44,240 bases of DNA from Candidatus Omnitrophota bacterium (lineage in GTDB: Bacteria > Omnitrophota > Gorgyraeia > 2-01-FULL-45-10), in contig JAPLMF010000019.1 in assembly GCA_026387155.1 (NCBI GenBank), forward strand, positions 1 through 44,240, read 5' to 3'. Of the stretch, positions 1 through 38,727 are shown piece after piece. Made by a program: the position numbers and the translations under genes. Positions within the stretch are counted from its first letter, which is position 1. Every line of letters begins with the position of its first letter. A model generated the notes under the pieces. The model worked only from the letters and a program-made list of their open reading frames with translations, was not told the origin of the DNA and did not search any database.

Positions 1-61
1 TTTTTTTTTTTTTTTATACTTATTTATAACTAAGTAGATGATCAAAAAAATATACTTCCCC

Positions 62-7341: not shown

Positions 7342-7352
7342 TGGCGTCCCTG
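7342..7352. repeat. att core copy 1: orphan copy of the last 11 nt of tRNA-Arg(UCU)
   Basis: tggcgtccctg is the reverse complement of CAGGGACGCCA (3' acceptor strand, discriminator and CCA). It is identical to 24818-24828. Confidence 0.8.
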
Positions 7353-14460: not shown

Positions 14461-14461
14461 G

Positions 14462-14618
14462 CATTCTCTCATATTGGCTTACGGGGTTAGCTGTCGAGCT
14501 CGGGTTGAGTGACCCTAATCTACTACTCTGTAGATATTTAGATATTCGCCCTAAGGTCTGTCGTAGACCGTACTTTGGTTTCCCCGTTTCCTTCTAAATA
14601 CAGCAATTAAAAGGAATG
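14462..14618 (-). promoter_or_regulatory. c-di-AMP riboswitch (ydaO/kimA class) in the kdp leader
   Basis: The minus-strand RNA contains the class-defining blocks ACGGGGAAACC, UUAGGGCGAAUAUCU, GUAGAUUAGGGUCAC and AACCCGAGCUCGACAGCUAACCCCGUAAGCCAAUA. It is closed by CAUUC...GAAUG. The blocks match my recollection of the crystallised ydaO aptamers. Confidence 0.85.
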
Positions 14619-14634
14619 TAGCTTATTAATGTTG

Positions 14635-14663
14635 ATTATAAATCTCAAAACCCTTTGTGTCAA
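14635..14663 (-). promoter_or_regulatory. Consensus sigma-70 promoter of the kdp operon
   Basis: On the minus strand: TTGACA (14663-14658), a 17-nt spacer and TATAAT (14640-14635). The -35 element overlaps the stop of the sigma-like gene. Confidence 0.8.
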
Positions 14664-15037
14664 TATAAGATACAATCAGACTTTTTTATCTCTTCTTTTA
14701 TAAAATCAATAATGAATCCGTCAATTCTTTTCCAGATATAATAACTGAATCGGACGGGCTTTGAATTACTATGTTTGTCCTTATATCGCAAATCGTAAGT
14801 TTTAATTTTATCATAAAGGATAGGTATAGCCTGCGAGAGGATGTCTTCCCCAAAACGAACACGATAGGTTGAAAACGCTATCTTATAAATACGAAAGATG
14901 ACAAAACCTATATGGCGCAGTACAATCTCATCTTTCTTTGCCCTAGAACGTCCTTGTGCTTGTTTAATAAGCCGTCTTTCTTGATAAAGAGAAATTTTAG
15001 GATATTTTCGTATAATCTGGCGGTAAGTTTCGAACAT
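14660..15037 (-). CDS. Sigma-70 region-2-like small protein with no region 4 (element B)
   Basis: 125 aa from MFETY (the start shared with the paralog at 22290). The pattern LYQERRLIKQAQ.G...A..EIVLRHIGFV...DILSQAI..LY..I..YD......KPVRFS.YIWKRI...I.DFI resembles sigma-70 regions 1.2-2.4. Confidence 0.55.
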   Translation of the reverse strand: MFETYRQIIRKYPKISLYQERRLIKQAQGRSRAKKDEIVLRHIGFVIFRIYKIAFSTYRVRFGEDILSQAIPILYDKIKTYDLRYKDKHSNSKPVRFSYYIWKRIDGFIIDFIKEEIKKSDCILY

Positions 15038-15098
15038 AGTTGCTGTATTATACAATCCAAATATCCGAAACCAAATAAAAAATATCTCACCTATCGCC

Positions 15099-18534: not shown

Positions 18535-18544
18535 TGGCGTCCCT
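18535..18544. repeat. att core copy 2 (junction between elements B and C)
   Basis: tggcgtccct matches the last 10 nt of tRNA-Arg(UCU). It is flanked on the left by the B near arm and on the right by the C far arm. Confidence 0.8.
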
Positions 18545-18849
18545 ATTATAGGGCTCTCTTATACTTATCTCTGATTTCGATAGCGTTATTATATAGTCAT
18601 TATCACTGATTGGCAAGAATTTTTGAAGATTCAGAGAGGCGAGTTTTAGAGAGATATCCGGACATGTCTGCGTGCTCAAAAACTGTCCGTTTTGTCCAGT
18701 ATTTTTAGGACAAAAAATCCATAACTTATTGTCATGCAGTCAAATACGAATGTCCATTGTACCAGACCCGGACATTTGTCTATTTTGCTTTCACGCTTTT
18801 ATCAAAAGTCGATAAAAGGTCCTTTAAAAATGGACATTAAGCATATCGT

Positions 18850-19341
18850 TTAATGGTGAACGAATAACTCTTTATTCTTTAATGCGGCAACTCTACCTTT
18901 CTGCAGCGTCAGCTTCTTCTGCTCATCCGCGAAAGTTGTTGTTACCTGCTTAGTCGCCGGCTGTGATCCATTGGTTGCATGAGCTTCTTCAGCCGTTGAT
19001 GTAGGCTGTTCATTTAGGGATACCTCGACATCTTTCCTCACATCCGCCATAGTTTGTTTTTTTTCGGTAAGCGTTTTATCAAGAGTTTCTTGTCTTTCTA
19101 GCTGCTTTTTTATATTCTCTTTGGCTTCATCGTCTGTAGGAAAAATATTCCGGGAAATTGTATAGCCGGGTTCGACGACAGTCTCTTCTTCTTTAATGAC
19201 CTCCTTTTCCACCGGCTGGCTTAATTGTTCCTTCGCTTTATGTATCCCTGAAAAAATCACCCACACGACCATAATTATAACCCCTATAATTATGCCAGCG
19301 CCTACCAACTTATCTGTCGAAATATTTTTATTCATGCTCAT
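18850..19341 (-). CDS. Single-pass membrane protein with a charged, low-complexity ectodomain
   Basis: 163 aa with one TM helix (GAGIIIGVIIMVVWVIFSGI). It is the last gene of the pseudopilin operon. Confidence 0.45.
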   Translation of the reverse strand: MSMNKNISTDKLVGAGIIIGVIIMVVWVIFSGIHKAKEQLSQPVEKEVIKEEETVVEPGYTISRNIFPTDDEAKENIKKQLERQETLDKTLTEKKQTMADVRKDVEVSLNEQPTSTAEEAHATNGSQPATKQVTTTFADEQKKLTLQKGRVAALKNKELFVHH

Positions 19342-19368
19342 TATCCAGGTTCTTGCTGGCTGTCTTTC

Positions 19369-20742
19369 TCAAAGTTGTTTTAGCGAAATTTTACGGTATC
19401 TTAGACCCCCGCTATCCTGCGCAGGAGTAAAAGACGGCGGTATTAAACTAGTAAGCCTATCGTCATAATATGGAATTTGAAGATAACCAAATTGCAGAGC
19501 ACCGCTTCCACTAAAACATCCAAACACGGTGGCGGACCATTGAGCCATTACTCCGCCATATTGCACCAAGTTTCCTAGCACGCCTGGAACCGCTGTCATG
19601 TTTTCTAGGTAAAATGAACCGTTGAGCGCAACTATATACGCATCGACCTCCTTATTACCTGACCCAAGATCATTAGGAAAAATAACGTTTGTTTTCGCAA
19701 CCAACCCCAATACATCGGTACTGGCAGGGTTAGGTGCGCTCGGGGAAGTATCGTGATATATTATACTATCTGAAGTCCAGATATTTTGGTCACAACCAAC
19801 CGTTACCTGACCGTTTAAGGCGCCCTTAACATCAACTTCCCCGCCCGTGACATAGATAGCGCCATTTTGGGGAATTGGCATGTTGGTAGTCGTCTTATAT
19901 TGGTTATTATTTGTAACATTCATGGTGCCGTTTGCAAGAAATTGGATGCTAGTATCGGTATGCGTCCCACCCGGGCCGCGATAATATCCGGGCTGTGGGT
20001 TTTGTGGATCATTCATATTACGGCCATCTATTAACAGCCCACTTCCTGGCTGGCTTGCGGCGGTTTTAATCGCGGTCAGTAGTGGCGCAGGGTCTGGCAA
20101 AGGAACGGGTTGAACCCCAAGCCACAGGCCCGCGTTAAACTGTGGTTGGTCGACTCCCGGGGAGTCATAGTATGATACTTGAGTGTCTGCTACAGACACT
20201 GCTCCATTAAATATAGGGTTACCGGCAACATAAAGATGATCGTTAACCTGTAGCGGACCATTAACAATATTGCCTGTTACCCAATAGGATGCATATCCTT
20301 CCCAACCGGGGTAATAACAAATTTCAGTGTTGGTAATGTAAGCCCAATGTTGAAACGAGGTTAATTGAACTGTCAACTGTAAGGTCTTTGACACACCTTT
20401 ATAGGTCCCTATAGATGTTATACCATATGTAGGCCAAGTCCCGGAAGCTAGTACCTGATAGCTCACGGCATAGCTACCCGCATCATTTGCCCCGTTGACA
20501 TTATAATTTTTACTGAAAGACAGCAGCGAAGGAGTCCACCCGCCATCCCGTAAATGTTTATAGCCATCAGCTATACCGGCATCCGCAATACAATATGCGC
20601 GCATAGCATTGCATTTTGCATACGCCAGAAATATGTCATTACTACAAATGGCAAGCAATGTCGTACAAAGAAAGATGACCAATAATAGTATCGGCAATGT
20701 CATAACTAATGCGAAGCCTCTTTTATCCACAAACGACCTCAT
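19369..20742 (-). CDS. PilX/GspK-like large pseudopilin
   Basis: 457 aa. The N-terminus KRGFALVMTLPILLLVIFL is a prepilin-like hydrophobic helix without Glu5, as in GspK/PilX. The ATGA start overlaps the upstream gene. Confidence 0.55.
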   Translation of the reverse strand: MRSFVDKRGFALVMTLPILLLVIFLCTTLLAICSNDIFLAYAKCNAMRAYCIADAGIADGYKHLRDGGWTPSLLSFSKNYNVNGANDAGSYAVSYQVLASGTWPTYGITSIGTYKGVSKTLQLTVQLTSFQHWAYITNTEICYYPGWEGYASYWVTGNIVNGPLQVNDHLYVAGNPIFNGAVSVADTQVSYYDSPGVDQPQFNAGLWLGVQPVPLPDPAPLLTAIKTAASQPGSGLLIDGRNMNDPQNPQPGYYRGPGGTHTDTSIQFLANGTMNVTNNNQYKTTTNMPIPQNGAIYVTGGEVDVKGALNGQVTVGCDQNIWTSDSIIYHDTSPSAPNPASTDVLGLVAKTNVIFPNDLGSGNKEVDAYIVALNGSFYLENMTAVPGVLGNLVQYGGVMAQWSATVFGCFSGSGALQFGYLQIPYYDDRLTSLIPPSFTPAQDSGGLRYRKISLKQL

Positions 20743-21266
20743 ACTGGATGATTCCTTAAATATGCAGAGCCCTCCACTGCGCCAAGCACTGTTTTGCCGC
20801 TTATTACTTGAGATACGCTGACATATATGCTGATACAGAGGGGAGCACCTACATTCAGTGTACCAAAAGTTAACCCCACCATAGCACCCGGCGGAGCAGT
20901 ATACAAAGTATTTTGTACCCCATTTGTATCGGAATAGATAAGCCTGGTGCCTCCATTGCTTAAAGAATATGTCCGCTTAATAACGCCGTCAGTTCCAATA
21001 AATGTAAGCTTACTGGTGTCGCTATAAAAAGTAACCGATGCGGCTTCGGAGAGGCGAAGCCCGTTTGTACAGCCTTTTCCCTCCGTTATCTTACTCATAA
21101 TAACTGCCGCGTCTCTCTGAAACGTTGCCCTAGCAATATCTGTGGCGAAGATCTGTTTTACAAGAACGAAGCCGGTCAATGCAGTGGCGAATAACGTAAT
21201 TAGCAGGGCGCTTGCGATCAGAAGCTCCGTTAAAGAAAAAGCCTTTTTATCAGATAATATTATCAT
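20739..21266 (-). CDS. Prepilin-type N-terminal domain protein (minor pilin/pseudopilin)
   Basis: 175 aa. DKKAFSLTELLIASALLITLF is a class III signal with Glu5, but Ala rather than Gly at -1. Confidence 0.65.
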   Translation of the reverse strand: MIILSDKKAFSLTELLIASALLITLFATALTGFVLVKQIFATDIARATFQRDAAVIMSKITEGKGCTNGLRLSEAASVTFYSDTSKLTFIGTDGVIKRTYSLSNGGTRLIYSDTNGVQNTLYTAPPGAMVGLTFGTLNVGAPLCISIYVSVSQVISGKTVLGAVEGSAYLRNHPV

Positions 21267-21271
21267 GGACT

Positions 21272-21730
21272 TTAGTTAAGTTGCGGTTCATTAGCTATAT
21301 CGGTAGTAAGAAACTCCTGCTTAGTTACCGGTATACCATTCATTTTTTCTTTCCAACTGACTTTGATCTGGACTGTTTTTCTATAACTACAAGTAGGATC
21401 ATTGTATGGTGGAAGAACTGTTACGGTAACGGTTGCGCCGGACATATTACAACCAATGTATGCTGGCGGCAAAAATTGTTGGTTGACAATATATGGGAAC
21501 CCGGCCACACGCTGCATATCCAATACGGTGCGGGCGGCATATATAGCCTGAAGCTTATGTTTTGAATAAGAAATGAAATATTGCTGTGTATATATAATGG
21601 CCTCAAACGATATAAACGCTATGGCTATTAACAAACAGCTTATTACCACTTCCACCAGAGTAAAACCTTTTTTATGCGATCTAGACCGTCTTATAAAGCT
21701 TAGTATCTTCATAGTTACAGCTTTTTCCAA
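21272..21730 (-). CDS. Prepilin-type N-terminal cleavage/methylation domain protein
   Basis: HKKGFTLVEVVISCLLIAIAF is a canonical G|FTLxE motif. The start may instead be the MKILSF Met at 21712. Confidence 0.75.
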   Translation of the reverse strand: MEKAVTMKILSFIRRSRSHKKGFTLVEVVISCLLIAIAFISFEAIIYTQQYFISYSKHKLQAIYAARTVLDMQRVAGFPYIVNQQFLPPAYIGCNMSGATVTVTVLPPYNDPTCSYRKTVQIKVSWKEKMNGIPVTKQEFLTTDIANEPQLN

Positions 21731-21838
21731 AATTAAGTGTATGCTGCTCTTTATGTTCCAATTGAATAATTAATTAATTCGATTCCAAGGAGATATAATC
21801 CATCCTCCCTTGTGAGCAACAGAGACTATTTATAGATA

Positions 21839-21867
21839 AGTATACCCCCCCCCTTACGTTTATGCAA
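21839..21867 (-). promoter_or_regulatory. Candidate promoter of the pseudopilin operon with a G9 tract in the spacer
   Basis: On the minus strand: TTGCAT (21867-21862), a 17-nt spacer (aaacgtaa plus G9 at 21853-21845) and TATACT (21844-21839). Confidence 0.55.
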
Positions 21868-21876
21868 ATATTTTAG

Positions 21877-22290
21877 TCACAGAGGAATTTCACAACCGAA
21901 TCCTCGCCAATCAAGGCTTTGTTGCTGTCTTTCCCCGCTAAGTTCTTCCTTTAAATAATCGATGATAAATCCATCTATTCTTTTTCATACATAGGAACTA
22001 AATCGGACGGGTTTTGAATTGCCGTATTTGTCTTTATATCGTAAATCGTAGGTTTTGATTTTAGCGTATAGAATAAATATAGCCTGAGAAAGCATATCTT
22101 CCCAGAAACGGGCGCGATAGGTAGGGAATGTTATCTTATTGATCCGGAAGATGACAAAGCCTATGTGGCGTAGGACAAGTTCGTCTTTTTTTGCCTTAGA
22201 ACGTCCCTGCGCTTGTTTAATGAGGCGTCTTTCTTGGTAAAGGGAGATTCTAGGATATTTATGTATAAGGTGGCTATAGGTTTCGAACAT
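21877..22290 (-). pseudogene. Sigma-70 region-2-like gene (element C) interrupted by an in-frame TGA
   Basis: The ORF stops at ...VRFSSYV* (TGA at 21985-21987), exactly where paralog B has Trp (..RFSYYIWKRIDGFIIDF). The same frame continues KRIDGFIIDYLKEE... to a stop at 21877. Confidence 0.7.
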
Positions 22291-22369
22291 GGCGGTATAT
22301 TATACAATTCGCATATTTGAAGCCAAACTGAAAAGAGCGAGAACCCGCCAGAAATCTGCTCCTATCACC

Positions 22370-22400
22370 TTGACTTGTGGCAGTTAGTATGGCCTATATG
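22370..22400 (+). promoter_or_regulatory. Candidate promoter of the DUF2924-recombinase operon (element C)
   Basis: TTGACT (22370-22375), a 19-nt spacer and TATATG (22395-22400). Confidence 0.35.
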
Positions 22401-22428
22401 ACATGAGGCTAGAGAGGAGATTTAAGCC

Positions 22429-22884
22429 ATGAATGAACCGATTTTATCCCAGATTATAGCGTTGAAAAATGCGCCTATTTCAGAACTCAAGCAAAAGTAC
22501 AGCGAGCTATTTGCGGGCAAAAAGACGTCTTCTGATAACAGGACGTATCTTTGGCAAAGGATCTCTTATAGGATACAGGAACTTGAATATGGCGAGCTAC
22601 CGCAAGAGGCACGAGATAAGGTTAAAGAACTGGCGCAAGAATACGACCCTATCAATAATAAGGCGCTAAGGCCAAACGCCGCAAAAAAACAGTGCCTCTC
22701 ACGCGATCAGCGTCTTCCGATACCGGGAACTATAATCACAAAAGAATATAAAGGTATTACTATAGAAATTAAAGTCCTAGAGAAGGGCTTTGAATATAAA
22801 TCTAAGGTCTATAAATCTCTTACAGCTATCGCAAAAGAAATAACTGGCTGCCATTGGAACGGGTACCTCTTTTTTAAAATGTAG
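22429..22884 (+). CDS. DUF2924-like protein (element C)
   Basis: 151-aa paralog of 15158-15613, with a GAGAGGAG SD. Confidence 0.6.
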   Translation: MNEPILSQIIALKNAPISELKQKYSELFAGKKTSSDNRTYLWQRISYRIQELEYGELPQEARDKVKELAQEYDPINNKALRPNAAKKQCLSRDQRLPIPGTIITKEYKGITIEIKVLEKGFEYKSKVYKSLTAIAKEITGCHWNGYLFFKM

Positions 22885-22892
22885 GCGACGAT

Positions 22893-24113
22893 ATGAATAA
22901 ACTTAAAAATCGAATCTATTGTGCAATCTATACACGCAAATCCACAACCGAAGGACTGGAGCAGGATTTTACATCTTTAGACGCTCAGCGCGAATCTGCC
23001 GAAAATTATATCGCAAGCCAAAAGTCCGAAGGATGGGTTATGCTGCCAACGCTCTACGATGATGGCGGCTACACCGGAGCCAATACCGATAGACCTGCCT
23101 TACAAAAGCTCATGTCAGATATTAAGAATGGCGGCATTAACTGTGTCGTTGTATATAAAGTCGATAGATTATCGCGATCGCTGCTTGATTTTACCCACTT
23201 GTTAGAATTTTTCGAAAAACATAACGTCGCGTTCGTGTCAGTTACTCAAGCCTTTAATACAAATACATCGATGGGGCGACTTACATTGAATATACTATTA
23301 TCATTCGCTCAATTTGAGCGGGAGATCATATCCGAACGCACCAAAGACAAAATGGGCGCCGCGCGCAAGAAAGGCCGATGGGTTGGCGGCATTCCCATTC
23401 TTGGCTATGATCTCGACAGGATCAACCATAAGCTCGTCATCAACCTAAAAGAAGCCGGGATTGTACGAGATTTATTCGATACCTATATCAAGGAAAAGTC
23501 ACTATTACGAACAGCTGTGATACTTAACGAAAAAGGCTATAGACGTAAGACCTATACTCCGCCAAAAGGCAAGACAATGGGCGGCCAAAAATTCCAGACT
23601 ACGACTGTGCAATATATTGTAAAGAACATTACATATACCGGCAAAATAAAATATGCCGGGGTAATATATTCCGGCCTGCATGAGCCGATCATATCCGAGG
23701 AGCTATTCCAAAAGACTCAAGAAATACTCGCCAATAATCGCGTAACGCGCAAGAAGATCGGGCATTCAAAGAATACATCCCTACTCGGCGACATCTTGCG
23801 TTGTAAGGCCTGTGGTAAAGCGATGTTTCATACCTACACGATGCGAGGCAAATATAAGTATAGATATTATGTCTGCCAAAGCGTCCAAAAACAAGGCTCA
23901 AATTCGTGTCCTACCAGATCAGTAAATGCGCAGGCTATAGAGGACGCCGCGATAGACTGTCTTCGCAAGATGCCTCAGAAAGAGTTAAAAGAAATTCTGG
24001 ATATCTGGGATGTACTATTCCCACAGCTAAAACATGAGGCATTAAAACGCATGGTTAAAGAAGTAAAATACGATGGAATAACTGGCAAGCTGGATATCGT
24101 TTTAAACCGTTAG
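22893..24113 (+). CDS. Large serine recombinase (element C)
   Basis: 406 aa. By manual count it shows about 30 substitutions relative to copy B (~92% identity). The canonical VYKVDRLSRS is intact. Confidence 0.85.
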   Translation: MNKLKNRIYCAIYTRKSTTEGLEQDFTSLDAQRESAENYIASQKSEGWVMLPTLYDDGGYTGANTDRPALQKLMSDIKNGGINCVVVYKVDRLSRSLLDFTHLLEFFEKHNVAFVSVTQAFNTNTSMGRLTLNILLSFAQFEREIISERTKDKMGAARKKGRWVGGIPILGYDLDRINHKLVINLKEAGIVRDLFDTYIKEKSLLRTAVILNEKGYRRKTYTPPKGKTMGGQKFQTTTVQYIVKNITYTGKIKYAGVIYSGLHEPIISEELFQKTQEILANNRVTRKKIGHSKNTSLLGDILRCKACGKAMFHTYTMRGKYKYRYYVCQSVQKQGSNSCPTRSVNAQAIEDAAIDCLRKMPQKELKEILDIWDVLFPQLKHEALKRMVKEVKYDGITGKLDIVLNR

Positions 24114-24121
24114 GATATTTT

Positions 24122-24496
24122 ATGGATAAAAACCTGATATATGAATTTAAAGTTGATTTAAAGCCTGTAAGGCATAAGTCTTGCCGGTATCATATGGCTA
24201 AAATCTCTAATGAGCCTAAACTGCGGCAATATTTAGTGCTGGCAATGCAGATAGATGAAACGCTTTCGGAAGGAAAGGCAAAGAACCTATATCAAATCAC
24301 TGAATGGCTTTGCATGACATATACAAGGATAAAGCAGATAACAAATCTATTACTTTTATGCCCTGAGATACAGAAAGACATATTACTGATAAATACAGAC
24401 AAAATCCGTCAGATCACAGAACGAAAAATCCGCAACATAACCAAAGAAATCGACTGGCAAAAGCAACTCTTGGCGTGGCATAACCTCCTAAAATAG
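24122..24496 (+). CDS. ParB/KorB-like HTH protein (element C)
   Basis: 124-aa paralog of 16849-17223. Confidence 0.5.
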   Translation: MDKNLIYEFKVDLKPVRHKSCRYHMAKISNEPKLRQYLVLAMQIDETLSEGKAKNLYQITEWLCMTYTRIKQITNLLLLCPEIQKDILLINTDKIRQITERKIRNITKEIDWQKQLLAWHNLLK

Positions 24497-24743
24497 CTAT
24501 CTTCTTCTGTCAAATATAAGTGGTTTAGTGATTATTTTAGCTATTTTTGCTTCTCAATATATGGACAAATCTGACGATAAATCCACTAAACCACCAAAAC
24601 ACTAAACCAGAGATAAAGAGAGGTTTCGAGAGCCTATTTTGGCCAAATACTGGCCTACCTAAGGCATTCTAGTAGAAAATAGTAATATTGATAAAATGGC
24701 TCAACCTACAGCAATATTTTGAATTTTCTCGTCGAGAAATCAT

Positions 24744-24780
24744 GAAAAAGGCCTTAGTTAATTAACAATCAACTAAGGTC
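24744..24780 (-). terminator. Intrinsic terminator downstream of tRNA-Arg(UCU), supplied by element C
   Basis: On the minus strand: GACCTTAGTT-loop-AACTAAGGCC followed by TTTTTC. It begins about 37 nt after the tRNA CCA end. Confidence 0.65.
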
Positions 24781-24817
24781 TTGTATTCTATGACTCTCTG
24801 TTTCGAGGCGAAATAAG

Positions 24818-24894
24818 TGGCGTCCCTGGCCTGATTCGAACAGGCGACCCTCTGCTTAGAAGGCAGATGCTCTATCCAACTGAGCTACAGGGAC
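24818..24894 (-). tRNA. tRNA-Arg (UCU); its last 11 nt form att core copy 3
   Basis: Reverse complement GTCCCTGTAGCTCAGTTGGATAGAGCATCTGCCTTCTAAGCAGAGGGTCGCCTGTTCGAATCAGGCCAGGGACGCCA. Anticodon loop CTTCTAA. Confidence 0.9.
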
Positions 24895-26346: not shown

Positions 26347-26866
26347 ATATGTCTCTTCCTTTTGTGTCGATGCCCACTATGAGCGGAAAATCCTTTACCT
26401 CGAGCTTATGTATAGCTTCGGTTCCCAGCTCTTTAAAAAGTATAGGACGGCACGACTTCACCTTCATGGATAACAACGCGCCCAAGCCTCCGGTCGCGAT
26501 AAAATATACGCACCCGTGTTTAACGATCGCCCTGCGGACCTCTTCGGACCTGCCGCCCTTGCCTATCATCCCGCGAAGTCCTAGTTTTAAGAGTTCGGGC
26601 GTGAACGAATCCATCCTCGAGCTCGTTGTGGGGCCGCATGAGCCGATAGGCCTCCTGGCAGGGGCCGGCGCCGGGCCCGCATAATATACGACGGCGTCGA
26701 CCAGGTTTATCGGGAGTCTTTTACTTTTACTCAGGATATCATGCAGCCTCTTATGGGCGGCGTCTCTGGCTGTAAATATTATTCCGCTTAAGAGCACCTC
26801 GTCACCCACCTTCAGAGCTGCGGCTTTTTCCTTAGTGATCGGTGTATTTAATTTTATTTGGCTCAT
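26318..26866 (-). CDS. Class I fumarate hydratase / tartrate dehydratase, beta (C-terminal) subunit
   Basis: [37 protein letters not shown]. The start at MSQIKL (26866) overlaps the alpha-subunit stop (ATGA). Confidence 0.85.
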
Positions 26867-27705
26867 AATATCTTCGAAGCGCCTCGCGTCGCATGGCAAC
26901 TTACATTCACGGCGACCGGAAGGCCGGCTATGTGCGTAGGATATTCAAGTATATTGACCCCGAATACGGTGGTCTTCCCGCCCAGCCCCATCGGGCCGAT
27001 ACCCAAAGCATTTATCTCAATTTCTAGCTCTTTCTCAAGCTTTGAAATATGCCGCCTTGCGTTACTTTTATCGATCGGATTCGTAAGGGCCTTCTTCGCC
27101 AGGTATGCCGCTTTTTCGAATGTCCCCCCTATGCCTATCCCAAGCACTAGCGGCGGGCAGGCGTCCGGCCCGGCATTCTTTACCACATCTATGACGAACT
27201 TCTTTATATCTTCTACTGACGATGTCGGATTGAACATCCTGATCTTGCTCTTATTCTCGCTGCCAAATCCTTTTGGGGATATCGTCACCTTCATCTTGTC
27301 CCCGTCGACTATATCGGTAAATATCACGCAAGGGGTATTCGTCCTGGTATTGTTCCTTAATAAAGGATCATCAACGACTGATTTGCGCAAATAGCCTTTG
27401 TCATAAGCCTTCCGGACGCCGTCGTTAACGGCGTCTTCCAGATTGCCGCCGGTTATCCTGACATCGATTCCGATATCTAGGAATACCGAGACCATACCCG
27501 TATCCTGGCAGATAGCTATCTTTTTATCTTTGGCCACGCGCGCATTCTCGACTATCGTCTTTAAGATGCCCTTGGCGCGAGCATTGGTCTCCTTCTTGTA
27601 TGCGCGCTTTATAGCTCCCAGCACGTCCTTACGAAGCTCGAAGTTCGCCTTAAGGCAAAGATCACTCACCGTATCACGTATCTGTGAAACCGCTATCTCT
27701 CTCAT
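26863..27705 (-). CDS. Class I fumarate hydratase / tartrate dehydratase, alpha (N-terminal) subunit
   Basis: 280 aa from MREIAVSQI: ICQDTGMVSVF, SPKGFGSEN, PPLVLGIGIGGT. In the ORF track it is fused in frame to the upstream queF reading frame. Confidence 0.85.
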   Translation of the reverse strand: MREIAVSQIRDTVSDLCLKANFELRKDVLGAIKRAYKKETNARAKGILKTIVENARVAKDKKIAICQDTGMVSVFLDIGIDVRITGGNLEDAVNDGVRKAYDKGYLRKSVVDDPLLRNNTRTNTPCVIFTDIVDGDKMKVTISPKGFGSENKSKIRMFNPTSSVEDIKKFVIDVVKNAGPDACPPLVLGIGIGGTFEKAAYLAKKALTNPIDKSNARRHISKLEKELEIEINALGIGPMGLGGKTTVFGVNILEYPTHIAGLPVAVNVSCHATRGASKIL

Positions 27706-28086
27706 ATTTTGTACTCTGCGTTGACCGTCGTTTTTATCCCGCCGCGGGCGTTCACCTACTATCTCCATCGACCTCGGTTTACATGACCTGACGCAGTCCT
27801 CCAGTATCTTATTTACGACATTTTCATTGAATATTCCTACGTCCCTGTAAAATATTGTATACATCTTGAGTGATTTAAGCTCAAGACATAGCTCATCAGG
27901 TATGTACTTTATCATTATATTCGCAAAATCCGGCAGTCCGGTCTTAGGACAGATGCAGGTAAATTCCGGTATATCAATGGTTATAGTGTAGTCCTTATCG
28001 GGATATTGGTTCTTCCAGGTCTCTATGACCGGTGTCCTCAAGTTCCTGACCTTACCCTGCAGCCCCTCGTACGAAGATCGCTTCAT
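27702..28086 (-). pseudogene. queF: NADPH-dependent 7-cyano-7-deazaguanine reductase (QueF type I) with a frameshift near the 3' end
   Basis: FTCICPKTGLPDF and ELKSLKMY are QueF motifs. After ...MEIVGE (~27751) the canonical C-terminus ARGGIKTTVNAEYKI* is found only in the +1 frame. That frame ends with a TGA overlapping the fumA ATG. Confidence 0.75.
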
Positions 28087-37360: not shown

Positions 37361-38727
37361 TTAATATCTACTAGCTAGCAGGTTCATTGATCTTTTGATT
37401 TTACTTAATAGCTTTGTAAGCCTTTTACTCCCCAAAACCTTATTCTTTGCTATCGTAACCGGAACTAAATCCCAAAAGTATTTAGCAGAATATGGGATTT
37501 TAATACCACAATGATTTACCATCTTGCGCCATCTATTCAAAGTTTTTATATTATGCTCTTTCGTATAATAATAGACAGCCCCGGACCTAATCCAAATTCT
37601 TTCGTCAAACCTATTTTCTTTGACTAAATCCGCATAAATCTTTGTTCCCGGAAGCACATAAAGCATCGAAGCCCCCGGACCATGCGTTGATCTTATATTT
37701 ATATTTGCGTATTCTATCGTTTCTTTTATTGTTTCCTCGGTTTCACCGGGGGTTCCCACGCAAAAAAATGCTGAGGTAGTCATCTTATCCGTAAACTTAG
37801 CACATATATCGAAGGCCCTCTTGACCATTTCCCTGGTGATCTTCTTATTGATCTTGCCGAGCATCTTCTCCGACAGGGTCTCCACCCCCCCATGATATAT
37901 GCCTGCAGCCGGAATCAGCCAATCTAGCGACCATCTCTTCGTTTACCGGAGTAACGCGACACTGGGCAGCATATTCAACGCCGCTTTTCTTCAATATCTC
38001 TGCAATTCTAATCGTCCTATCTATTCCCAGATTGAATGTGTCGTCATGAAAAAAAATACGCTTTGCCCCCATTCGTTTAACAAGTTCAACTTCTTCCCCG
38101 ATTCTTTCCGGAGAATTCATACGCACGTTCGCAATTAACCGGACAACCGCGAGAAGTTATTAAGTAACCGATCTCTTTTTGTTTAATTTCCTCTGCAACA
38201 TAAGAGTAATCCGGCAATGGTAAATCATCCAAATTTTTAACAAGATTAGAAACCCTGTTTGCTATAATACCGCCGCTTTTATCTTTATACACTAATCCGC
38301 TAATCAAAGACAATTCCCCTCCGGTCTCAAGCGCCTGGCATAACATAGGTAAAGATATTTCTCCTTCAGACTGGATTATGAAATCTACATCATTATAGAA
38401 ATATTTAAAAATCTGCACATAAAGGGTAGCTGGATGAACTCCGCCAAGCACAACAAAAATTTTCTTATCTATTTTCTTTATTTGTTTTAGTAACTTAAAA
38501 GCGCCCTGGCGATTAAAAGAATTAAATGATATTCCAACCAGATCCGGTTTCTTAATTTTTATAGAAGATAGAAATAATCTGATGCTTTTATTAAACTCTT
38601 TTCCGTTGTAGTTATAAACATCGACTTCATGGCGCTTGTTCAAAGAGGCGCAAAGATACGCCAAGCCCAAAGAATAGCCTTTTATATCTAATTCTGAAGT
38701 TGGCGGGTAAACTAGCGCAATTCTCAT
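37361..38727 (-). pseudogene. B12-binding-domain radical SAM protein, broken into three ORFs by two frameshifts
   Basis: The N-terminal fragment ends at TSRGCPVNC and then leaves frame, so the third Cys of CxxxCxxC is absent. The second break lies in a G7 run (C7 on +, 37889-37895). One fewer G would restore ..ISWGVETLSEKML... Confidence 0.7.

Follow-up and report, generated by a model that had tools for sequence, protein, structure and literature searches.

A nine-guanine tract in the spacer of a predicted promoter ahead of an island-borne minor-pilin cassette of Omnitrophota: a candidate phase-variation switch

Does a run of nine guanines, situated between two promoter-like hexamers ahead of a set of pilin genes, act as an expression switch in an uncultured bacterium of the phylum Omnitrophota? 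The run (G9) lies in a stretch of 44,240 nt of contig JAPLMF010000019.1, hereafter the window, by which we mean the whole of the DNA analysed. In the mechanism considered here, G9 would be part of a sigma-70-type promoter driving a four-gene minor-pilin cassette with a ComZ-like pilus-tip protein, the nine guanines placing the -35 TTG and the -10 TATACT at the optimal distance of 17 nt. Being prone to slipped-strand mispairing, G9 would yield G8 and G10 variants during replication, and in these variants the spacing, and hence the promoter strength, would be altered, resulting in a stochastic switch between high and low expression of the type known from porA and tp0126. For this the promoter would have to fire, the tract would have to slip at a useful rate in this organism and expression would have to follow tract length. 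We put forward the complete reading, in which a slippage-prone G9 determines the spacing of a real promoter and the output changes in G8 and G10 cells, tentatively, as a candidate case of porA/tp0126-type phase variation whose chances we place somewhat below even.

The tract and its surroundings comprise the following elements, listed from upstream to downstream.

21868-21863, minus strand: alternative -35 register TTTGCA, matching TTGACA in 4/6 positions, with an 18-nt spacer
21867-21862, minus strand: -35-like hexamer TTGCAT, matching TTGACA in 3/6 positions, TTG kept
21861-21845, minus strand: 17-nt spacer aaacgtaaGGGGGGGGG, read from the sequence
21853-21845, minus strand: G9 homopolymer (C9 on the plus strand), directly abutting the -10 hexamer
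21844-21839, minus strand: -10-like hexamer TATACT, matching TATAAT in 5/6 positions
21713..21838, minus strand: predicted 5' leader of approx. 110-125 nt, with a mini-ORF

The spacer is composed of aaacgtaa followed by GGGGGGGGG, and the homopolymer thus takes up 9 of the 17 positions between the predicted hexamers TTGCAT and TATACT. Coordinates and base count agree exactly with the preliminary description of this DNA, which had claimed TTGCAT and TATACT at a distance of 17 nt with a 9-nt G run at 21845-21853. Its placement of the promoter about 100 nt upstream of the first pseudopilin gene was fair: counted from the last base of the -10 hexamer, the distance is 108 nt to a possible TTG start at 21730 and 126 nt to the ATG at 21712, which is the start used by the gene calls. 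Between the sigma-like gene that lies upstream and the pilin start, TTGCAT...TATACT is the top sigma-70-like -35/-10 candidate; the consensus promoter scan lists it in the register TTTGCA-18-TATACT, at 9/12. Since TTTGCA overlaps the TTGCAT register, the loss of one G would restore the 17-nt spacing with a 4/6 -35 and buffer the effect, and the predicted response to a -1 G change may be milder than that to a +1 G change.

The tract is the sole G/C run of at least 8 nt in the 44 kb window, and under a first-order Markov model 17% of simulated windows contained a run of at least 9 nt. The intergenic region in which it lies measures 164 nt, with approx. 30% GC and 15.5% G outside the run; from this composition alone, simple arithmetic gives an expectation of approx. 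8e-6 occurrences of G9 in these 164 nt. In 462 kb of related loci there were two G/C runs of at least 8 nt, one of them in Omnitrophota, and the frequency of such runs in related DNA of Omnitrophota is approx. one per 400 kb. Given a G9 in the background, flanks as promoter-like as those observed (a TTG at 17 nt and a 5/6 -10) appeared in about 2% of simulations per strand. These results support a non-random tract in a promoter-like frame, the promoter itself being a prediction.

The genes that follow on the same strand form the cassette.

21272..21712, minus strand: gene 1, prepilin-type minor pilin with the N-terminus KKGFTLVEV and a weak PilV-like match
20739..21266, minus strand: gene 2, pilin-like protein with the N-terminus KKAFSLTELL
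19369..20742, minus strand: gene 3, 457-aa DUF4900 protein with a ComZ-like fold
18850..19341, minus strand: gene 4, single-pass membrane protein, from gene call

The genes downstream of the candidate promoter encode a surface structure, as seen from the prepilin N_methyl motif of gene 1 (25.4 bits against a Pfam cut-off of 21.2), from its PilV-like match and from the fold of gene 3. The AlphaFold model of the gene 3 product (pLDDT 87, pTM 0.81) has a single significant match in the PDB, Thermus thermophilus ComZ (6qvi; Foldseek E 2e-9, probability 1.0, TM approx. 0.35, identity 12%), and on the basis of this model it is predicted to be a large tip-type minor pilin, ComZ-like. Gene calls for L007 and L008, both close relatives, and for the strain of the window itself place a protein of 161-171 aa at the position of gene 4. 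The gene order, pilin (approx. 148 aa), approx. 172 aa, approx. 430 aa, is shared by more than 40 Omnitrophota genomes, in most cases at chromosomal locations, and homologues of gene 3 derive almost exclusively from Omnitrophota MAGs. With its prepilin N-termini, ComZ-like pilin and gene order, the locus belongs to the DUF4900 minor-pilin/tip cassettes of this phylum; because the order is conserved across Omnitrophota and is mostly chromosomal, the copy studied here, which is carried on an island, is best described as an accessory pilus-tip module. Genes for an assembly ATPase, a platform protein or a secretin are absent from the island. In Omnitrophota, attachment to the host is believed to be mediated by type IV pili (PMC10066038).

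The predicted leader between the -10 hexamer and gene 1 gave no Rfam match and no significant fold. Within it (21773-21811, minus strand), a strong Shine-Dalgarno-like sequence, AAGGGAGG, abuts the ATG of a 9-codon mini-ORF, MDYISLESN followed by a stop codon. The real pilin start in the window is preceded by a weak Shine-Dalgarno sequence only, and in relatives GGGAGG stands 8 nt ahead of the pilin ATG. The mini-ORF, with its ATG and Shine-Dalgarno-like sequence, may be the vestige of an older gene start.

The genomic setting is that of an integrated element, of which the relevant parts are as follows.

18545..24817, strand not applicable: island with the cassette as cargo, with copies of the tRNA-Arg(TCT) 3' end at both borders
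22429-24496: integration module, comprising a DUF2924 protein, a large serine recombinase and a 124-aa protein
22326-22299, minus strand: promoter of the sigma-like gene, TTGGCT-16-TATAAT, conserved in the paralogous island
21877..22290, minus strand: sigma-region-2-like gene of the island integration module, with a paralog at 14660-15055

Direct repeats, TGGCGTCCCT, border this outer island at 18535 and 24818, the tRNA-Arg(TCT) itself being located at 24818-24894, and a third copy at 7342 forms the border of a second, tandem island. The border repeats and a recombinase with Resolvase, Recombinase and Zn ribbon domains characterise a tRNA-integrating island. Both islands share a module consisting of the minus-strand sigma-region-2-like gene, the DUF2924 protein, the serine recombinase and the 124-aa protein, and in each the cargo is found downstream of the sigma-like gene: the four-gene cassette (21712-18850) in the outer island, and kdpFABC in the inner one, where it stands behind TTGACA-17-TATAAT at a position equivalent to that of the G9 promoter. 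In the inner island, a c-di-AMP riboswitch (14461-14615; Rfam, 71.5 bits) follows this perfect TTGACA-17-TATAAT (14620-14660) and precedes kdpFABC. The homology between the two integration modules stops at approx. 21940, and related islands represented by contigs of the same metagenomes diverge at 21907-21955; from both observations, the G9 region is part of the cargo and not of the module. A location of G9 at the island/cargo junction was ruled out on the same coordinates, the junction lying at approx. 21907-21955. The sigma-like gene of the outer island has a TGA at 21987-21985 where its paralog has TGG for a conserved Trp, and the frame is open to 21877; TGA recoding was considered and rejected, as the TGG of the paralog identifies the change as a nonsense mutation. 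A broader proposal is that the island, small and tRNA-targeting, brings an Omnitrophota nanobacterium a self-contained pilus-tip module (PilV-like plus ComZ-like) that slippage can switch; it strikes us as doubtful, albeit worth stating.

Upstream of the orthologous cassettes of Omnitrophota there are conserved promoters of the sigma-70 type, with 17-nt spacers and in several cases with TATACT as the -10. In the clade L046-L052, TTGATA-17-TATACT is located approx. 50 nt upstream of the pilin gene and is followed by GGGAGG and ATG; the hexamers are invariant, the middle of the spacer is variable, and beyond the promoter, on its upstream side, some members have unrelated sequence. As far as comparison of sequences can tell, this pattern is the one by which a real promoter is classically recognised. 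It could also be used as a reference for promoter architecture in Omnitrophota. The other loci read TTGACA-17-TATACT (L011), TTGTCA-17-TATAAT (L044), TTGACA-17-TACAAT (L007, whose cargo protein is 84% identical) and TTGTTG-17-TATAAT (L008). The presence of TATACT in orthologous promoters indicates that this -10 is commonly used before the cassette in the phylum. Among the orthologous cassettes with a promoter, no spacer contains a G/C run of at least 6 nt.

A G run in a comparable position was found in another context. In L013 (86-114), a G7 lies within the 17-nt spacer of TTGACA...TGaTATAAA, approx. 170 nt upstream of a PilA-like gene, and in strains with 5-9 differences per 250 nt the G7 is kept and the core promoter is free of SNPs, with a divergent leader. 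This case supports the promoter reading, the G run there behaving, to judge from these alignments, as a fixed part of the promoter. The only other G9 in the loci fetched is that of L028 (3201-3209), 4 nt before the ATG of a gene for an RRM-type RNA-binding protein, where the poly-G seems to serve as a ribosome-binding site. The same role was ruled out for G9 of the window, as no start codon follows it.

The placement of a promoter at this site in the preliminary description has therefore gained in three respects: it is the best sigma-70-like candidate of the intergenic region, orthologous cassettes have promoters with the same 17-nt spacing, and the paralogous island has a consensus promoter. 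A promoter reading of the G9 region is plausible, and we predict that TTGCAT-17-TATACT is probably a functional promoter.

The main alternative is that no functional promoter exists here, the hexamers having come together by chance; the cassette would be transcribed by read-through from 22326-22299 or from elsewhere, and G9 would have grown by neutral slippage in non-coding cargo DNA. Promoter-like hexamer pairs as such are indeed without enrichment between 18.5 and 23 kb (13 found against 11.9 in shuffles), and the -35 matches the consensus in 3/6 positions only. A source of read-through is also at hand: TTGGCT-16-TATAAT, the promoter of the sigma-like gene, is conserved between the paralogous islands, and the interval that separates this gene from the cassette lacks any terminator or stable hairpin, which makes read-through into the cassette possible; transcription of the cassette from 22326-22299 is accordingly to be counted as a possible, predicted route. 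Furthermore, the leader of 108-126 nt exceeds the 25-30 nt in most relatives for which a promoter was found (-35 beginning 47-51 nt before the start codon), it carries the vestigial-looking Shine-Dalgarno sequence and ATG, and all sequence upstream of the KKGFTL codons is unrelated between the window and L007. Long leaders are nevertheless known, of approx. 170 nt in L013 and approx. 200 nt in L007. Chance is also a poor match for the tract itself, with its expectation of approx. 8e-6 in DNA of 30% GC, and for its frame, which was reproduced in about 2% of simulations and has as its -10 the TATACT conserved in orthologous cassettes. We consider the absence of a promoter somewhat unlikely.

If the promoter is real, the question becomes whether the tract varies in length. 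Tract variants were sought in Logan consensus contigs of 13 DNA runs, those holding the sequence being lake and freshwater metagenomes. The contigs extending across the tract had G9 in 9/9 runs from eight samples and three studies (X1, X2, X3, X4, X25 and X26 in one; X5 and X8 in another; X9 in the third), covering 2022-2025 with a summed depth of approx. 80x. Four further contigs, obtained by exact-protein look-up, were also G9; these look-ups returned the same strain only. The closest relatives, at 65-75% identity, come from ENA, and for those at 75% (assemblies ERZ1426844 and ERZ1426855) the spacing of the genes mirrors that of the island. At 7-13x per run, the Logan contigs included no alternative low-depth contig with an indel in the tract, and pattern scans of JGI metagenome contigs and IMG/VR allowing G6-G18 gave no match. 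Two runs of 5x break near the tract, but similar breaks occur elsewhere in low-depth runs and these two are hence uninformative. Indels are detectable by this approach: as a positive control, the same method revealed a 32-nt difference at 38130/38131. No sequence of this organism, its tmRNA included, turned up in the metatranscriptome contigs of these samples.

At the level of consensus contigs the samples are thus uniform in tract length, all being G9. The dominant allele is stably G9, and variants above approx. 15-25% in any one sample are unlikely. G9, at 17 nt, is the predicted 'on' state and is dominant in every population sampled. For the phase switch suggested in the preliminary description, the outcome is divided: the homopolymer does sit in a promoter-like spacer, but consensus contigs from eight samples contain G9 only, and the spacers of relatives lack G/C runs of at least 6 nt. 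The inspection for G8 or G10 at 21845-21853 that it had advised was carried out at the level of consensus contigs, at which minority variants are invisible, and returned G9 throughout.

Elsewhere in the window, the reading frame of a radical-SAM gene breaks exactly at a G7 run (37885-37891, minus strand), which has seven guanines in 4/4 sequencing runs. The position of this tract at the break and its fixed length indicate that one-base slippage in a G run has occurred and persisted in this lineage.

A second alternative accepts the promoter and takes G9 as a fixed part of its spacer, setting the 17 nt and perhaps providing local stiffness, with its length held by selection or efficient repair and no consequential switching. 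The uniformity of the tract across nine runs and three studies is what this reading would expect, as is L013, where the length of the G7 and the SNP-free core promoter are conserved while the leader diverges; the G9 at the ribosome-binding site of L028 likewise suggests that G runs serve as ordinary signal sequence in the phylum. However, a run of nine cannot wholly escape slippage, given that runs of at least 8 in N. meningitidis vary even within overnight colonies (PMC5084427), and the orthologous promoters attain 17 nt with mixed sequence, from which it follows that a homopolymer is not required. It should also be noted that minority variants would be invisible in consensus contigs. Such a fixed spacer is, in our estimation, unlikely as the full account of the tract.

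That the run length is an artefact of assembly or sequencing is effectively refuted: although the window assembly has a local defect, lacking 32 nt at 38130/38131 relative to contigs of the same population, the tract reads exactly G9 in independent Logan contigs from nine runs and in the four further contigs.

The difference at 38130/38131 falls inside the radical-SAM gene, where 32 additional bases are present in X26, in X5 and at a loose end in X1; it is a local assembly deletion or a variant, and the decay of this gene is probably in part an assembly defect. Two other irregularities were noticed in the window. At 26863-28086, a single ORF of 407 aa has a QueF-like start and continues as the alpha subunit of fumarate hydratase, a fusion that is a probable frameshift or assembly join, and the T15 run at the contig edge (window 1-15) is probably an assembly end artefact.

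Should G9 act as the slippage switch outlined at the outset, carriers of the island could stochastically tune an accessory pilus tip, altering host attachment or DNA uptake, and an uncultured and probably host-dependent phylum would have its first simple-sequence contingency locus, a mobile one at that. Within the literature that could be searched, phase variation is nowhere reported for Omnitrophota. With a working switch, simple-sequence phase variation, known from animal pathogens, would reach an environmental phylum of free-living or episymbiotic bacteria, and a mobile island would be seen to bring along stochastic control over the expression of a pilus-tip module. If the switch fails, the tract is an unusual promoter spacer or a neutral run, of value for annotation only.

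Several known systems allow comparison. With respect to gene content, the locus resembles comZ/pilA of Thermus thermophilus, in that a 457-aa protein of ComZ fold is encoded beside small prepilin-type proteins as a pilus-tip module. The resemblance to ComZ itself is limited to 12% identity and a TM of approx. 0.35, and any role in DNA binding or competence would be hypothetical. To our knowledge, ComZ has not been described as phase-variable or as island-borne.

With respect to regulation, the likeness is to porA of N. meningitidis, in which a G homopolymer lies in the sigma-70 spacer of a surface-protein gene and its length sets the -35/-10 distance. The original work on the poly-G of the porA promoter is reportedly that of van der Ende et al. 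(1995). For porA, both the variation in length, among strains as well as inside them, and its consequences for expression have been demonstrated, whereas here G9 alone is found and the promoter is predicted; the porA host is a pathogen, whereas our locus is the cargo of a mobile island in an uncultured environmental member of Omnitrophota. Graded or on/off control by slippage also operates in fetA (poly-C), in fim2/fim3 of Bordetella pertussis (poly-C) and in vlp of Mycoplasma hyorhinis (poly-A), the homopolymers lying within or beside promoter elements of adhesin or fimbrial genes. A spacing of 17 nt is optimal in porA (as summarised in PMC7864442), and the same optimum applies to tp0126 of T. 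pallidum, with its poly-G between -35 and -10 (PMC7864442). The tprL tract of T. pallidum is mostly G9, with minor variants of G7-G11, and as it is G9-dominant yet variable, a G9 consensus is compatible with switching (PMC7864442). In N. meningitidis, tracts of at least 8 are predominantly variable (PMC5084427). T. pallidum is hard to grow, and amplicon fragment-length analysis and GFP reporters in E. coli were used for it (PMC7864442); for tp0126 and tprL, the start site, the length heterogeneity in vivo and the reporter effects were measured, whereas those of the present locus are predicted from sequence. In opc of Neisseria, a poly-C homopolymer lies in or next to promoter elements and expression changes by slippage (PMC7864442). 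The tracts of opc and fim overlap or adjoin an activator or -35 site, unlike the simple spacer considered here, and opc, fetA, fim and vlp belong to host-associated pathogens with many such loci, whereas a single tract is known from the 44 kb window. By analogy with porA and tp0126, the design proposed for G9 would be one already known, and what would be new, if it is real, is the phylum in which it occurs and its location on a mobile island.
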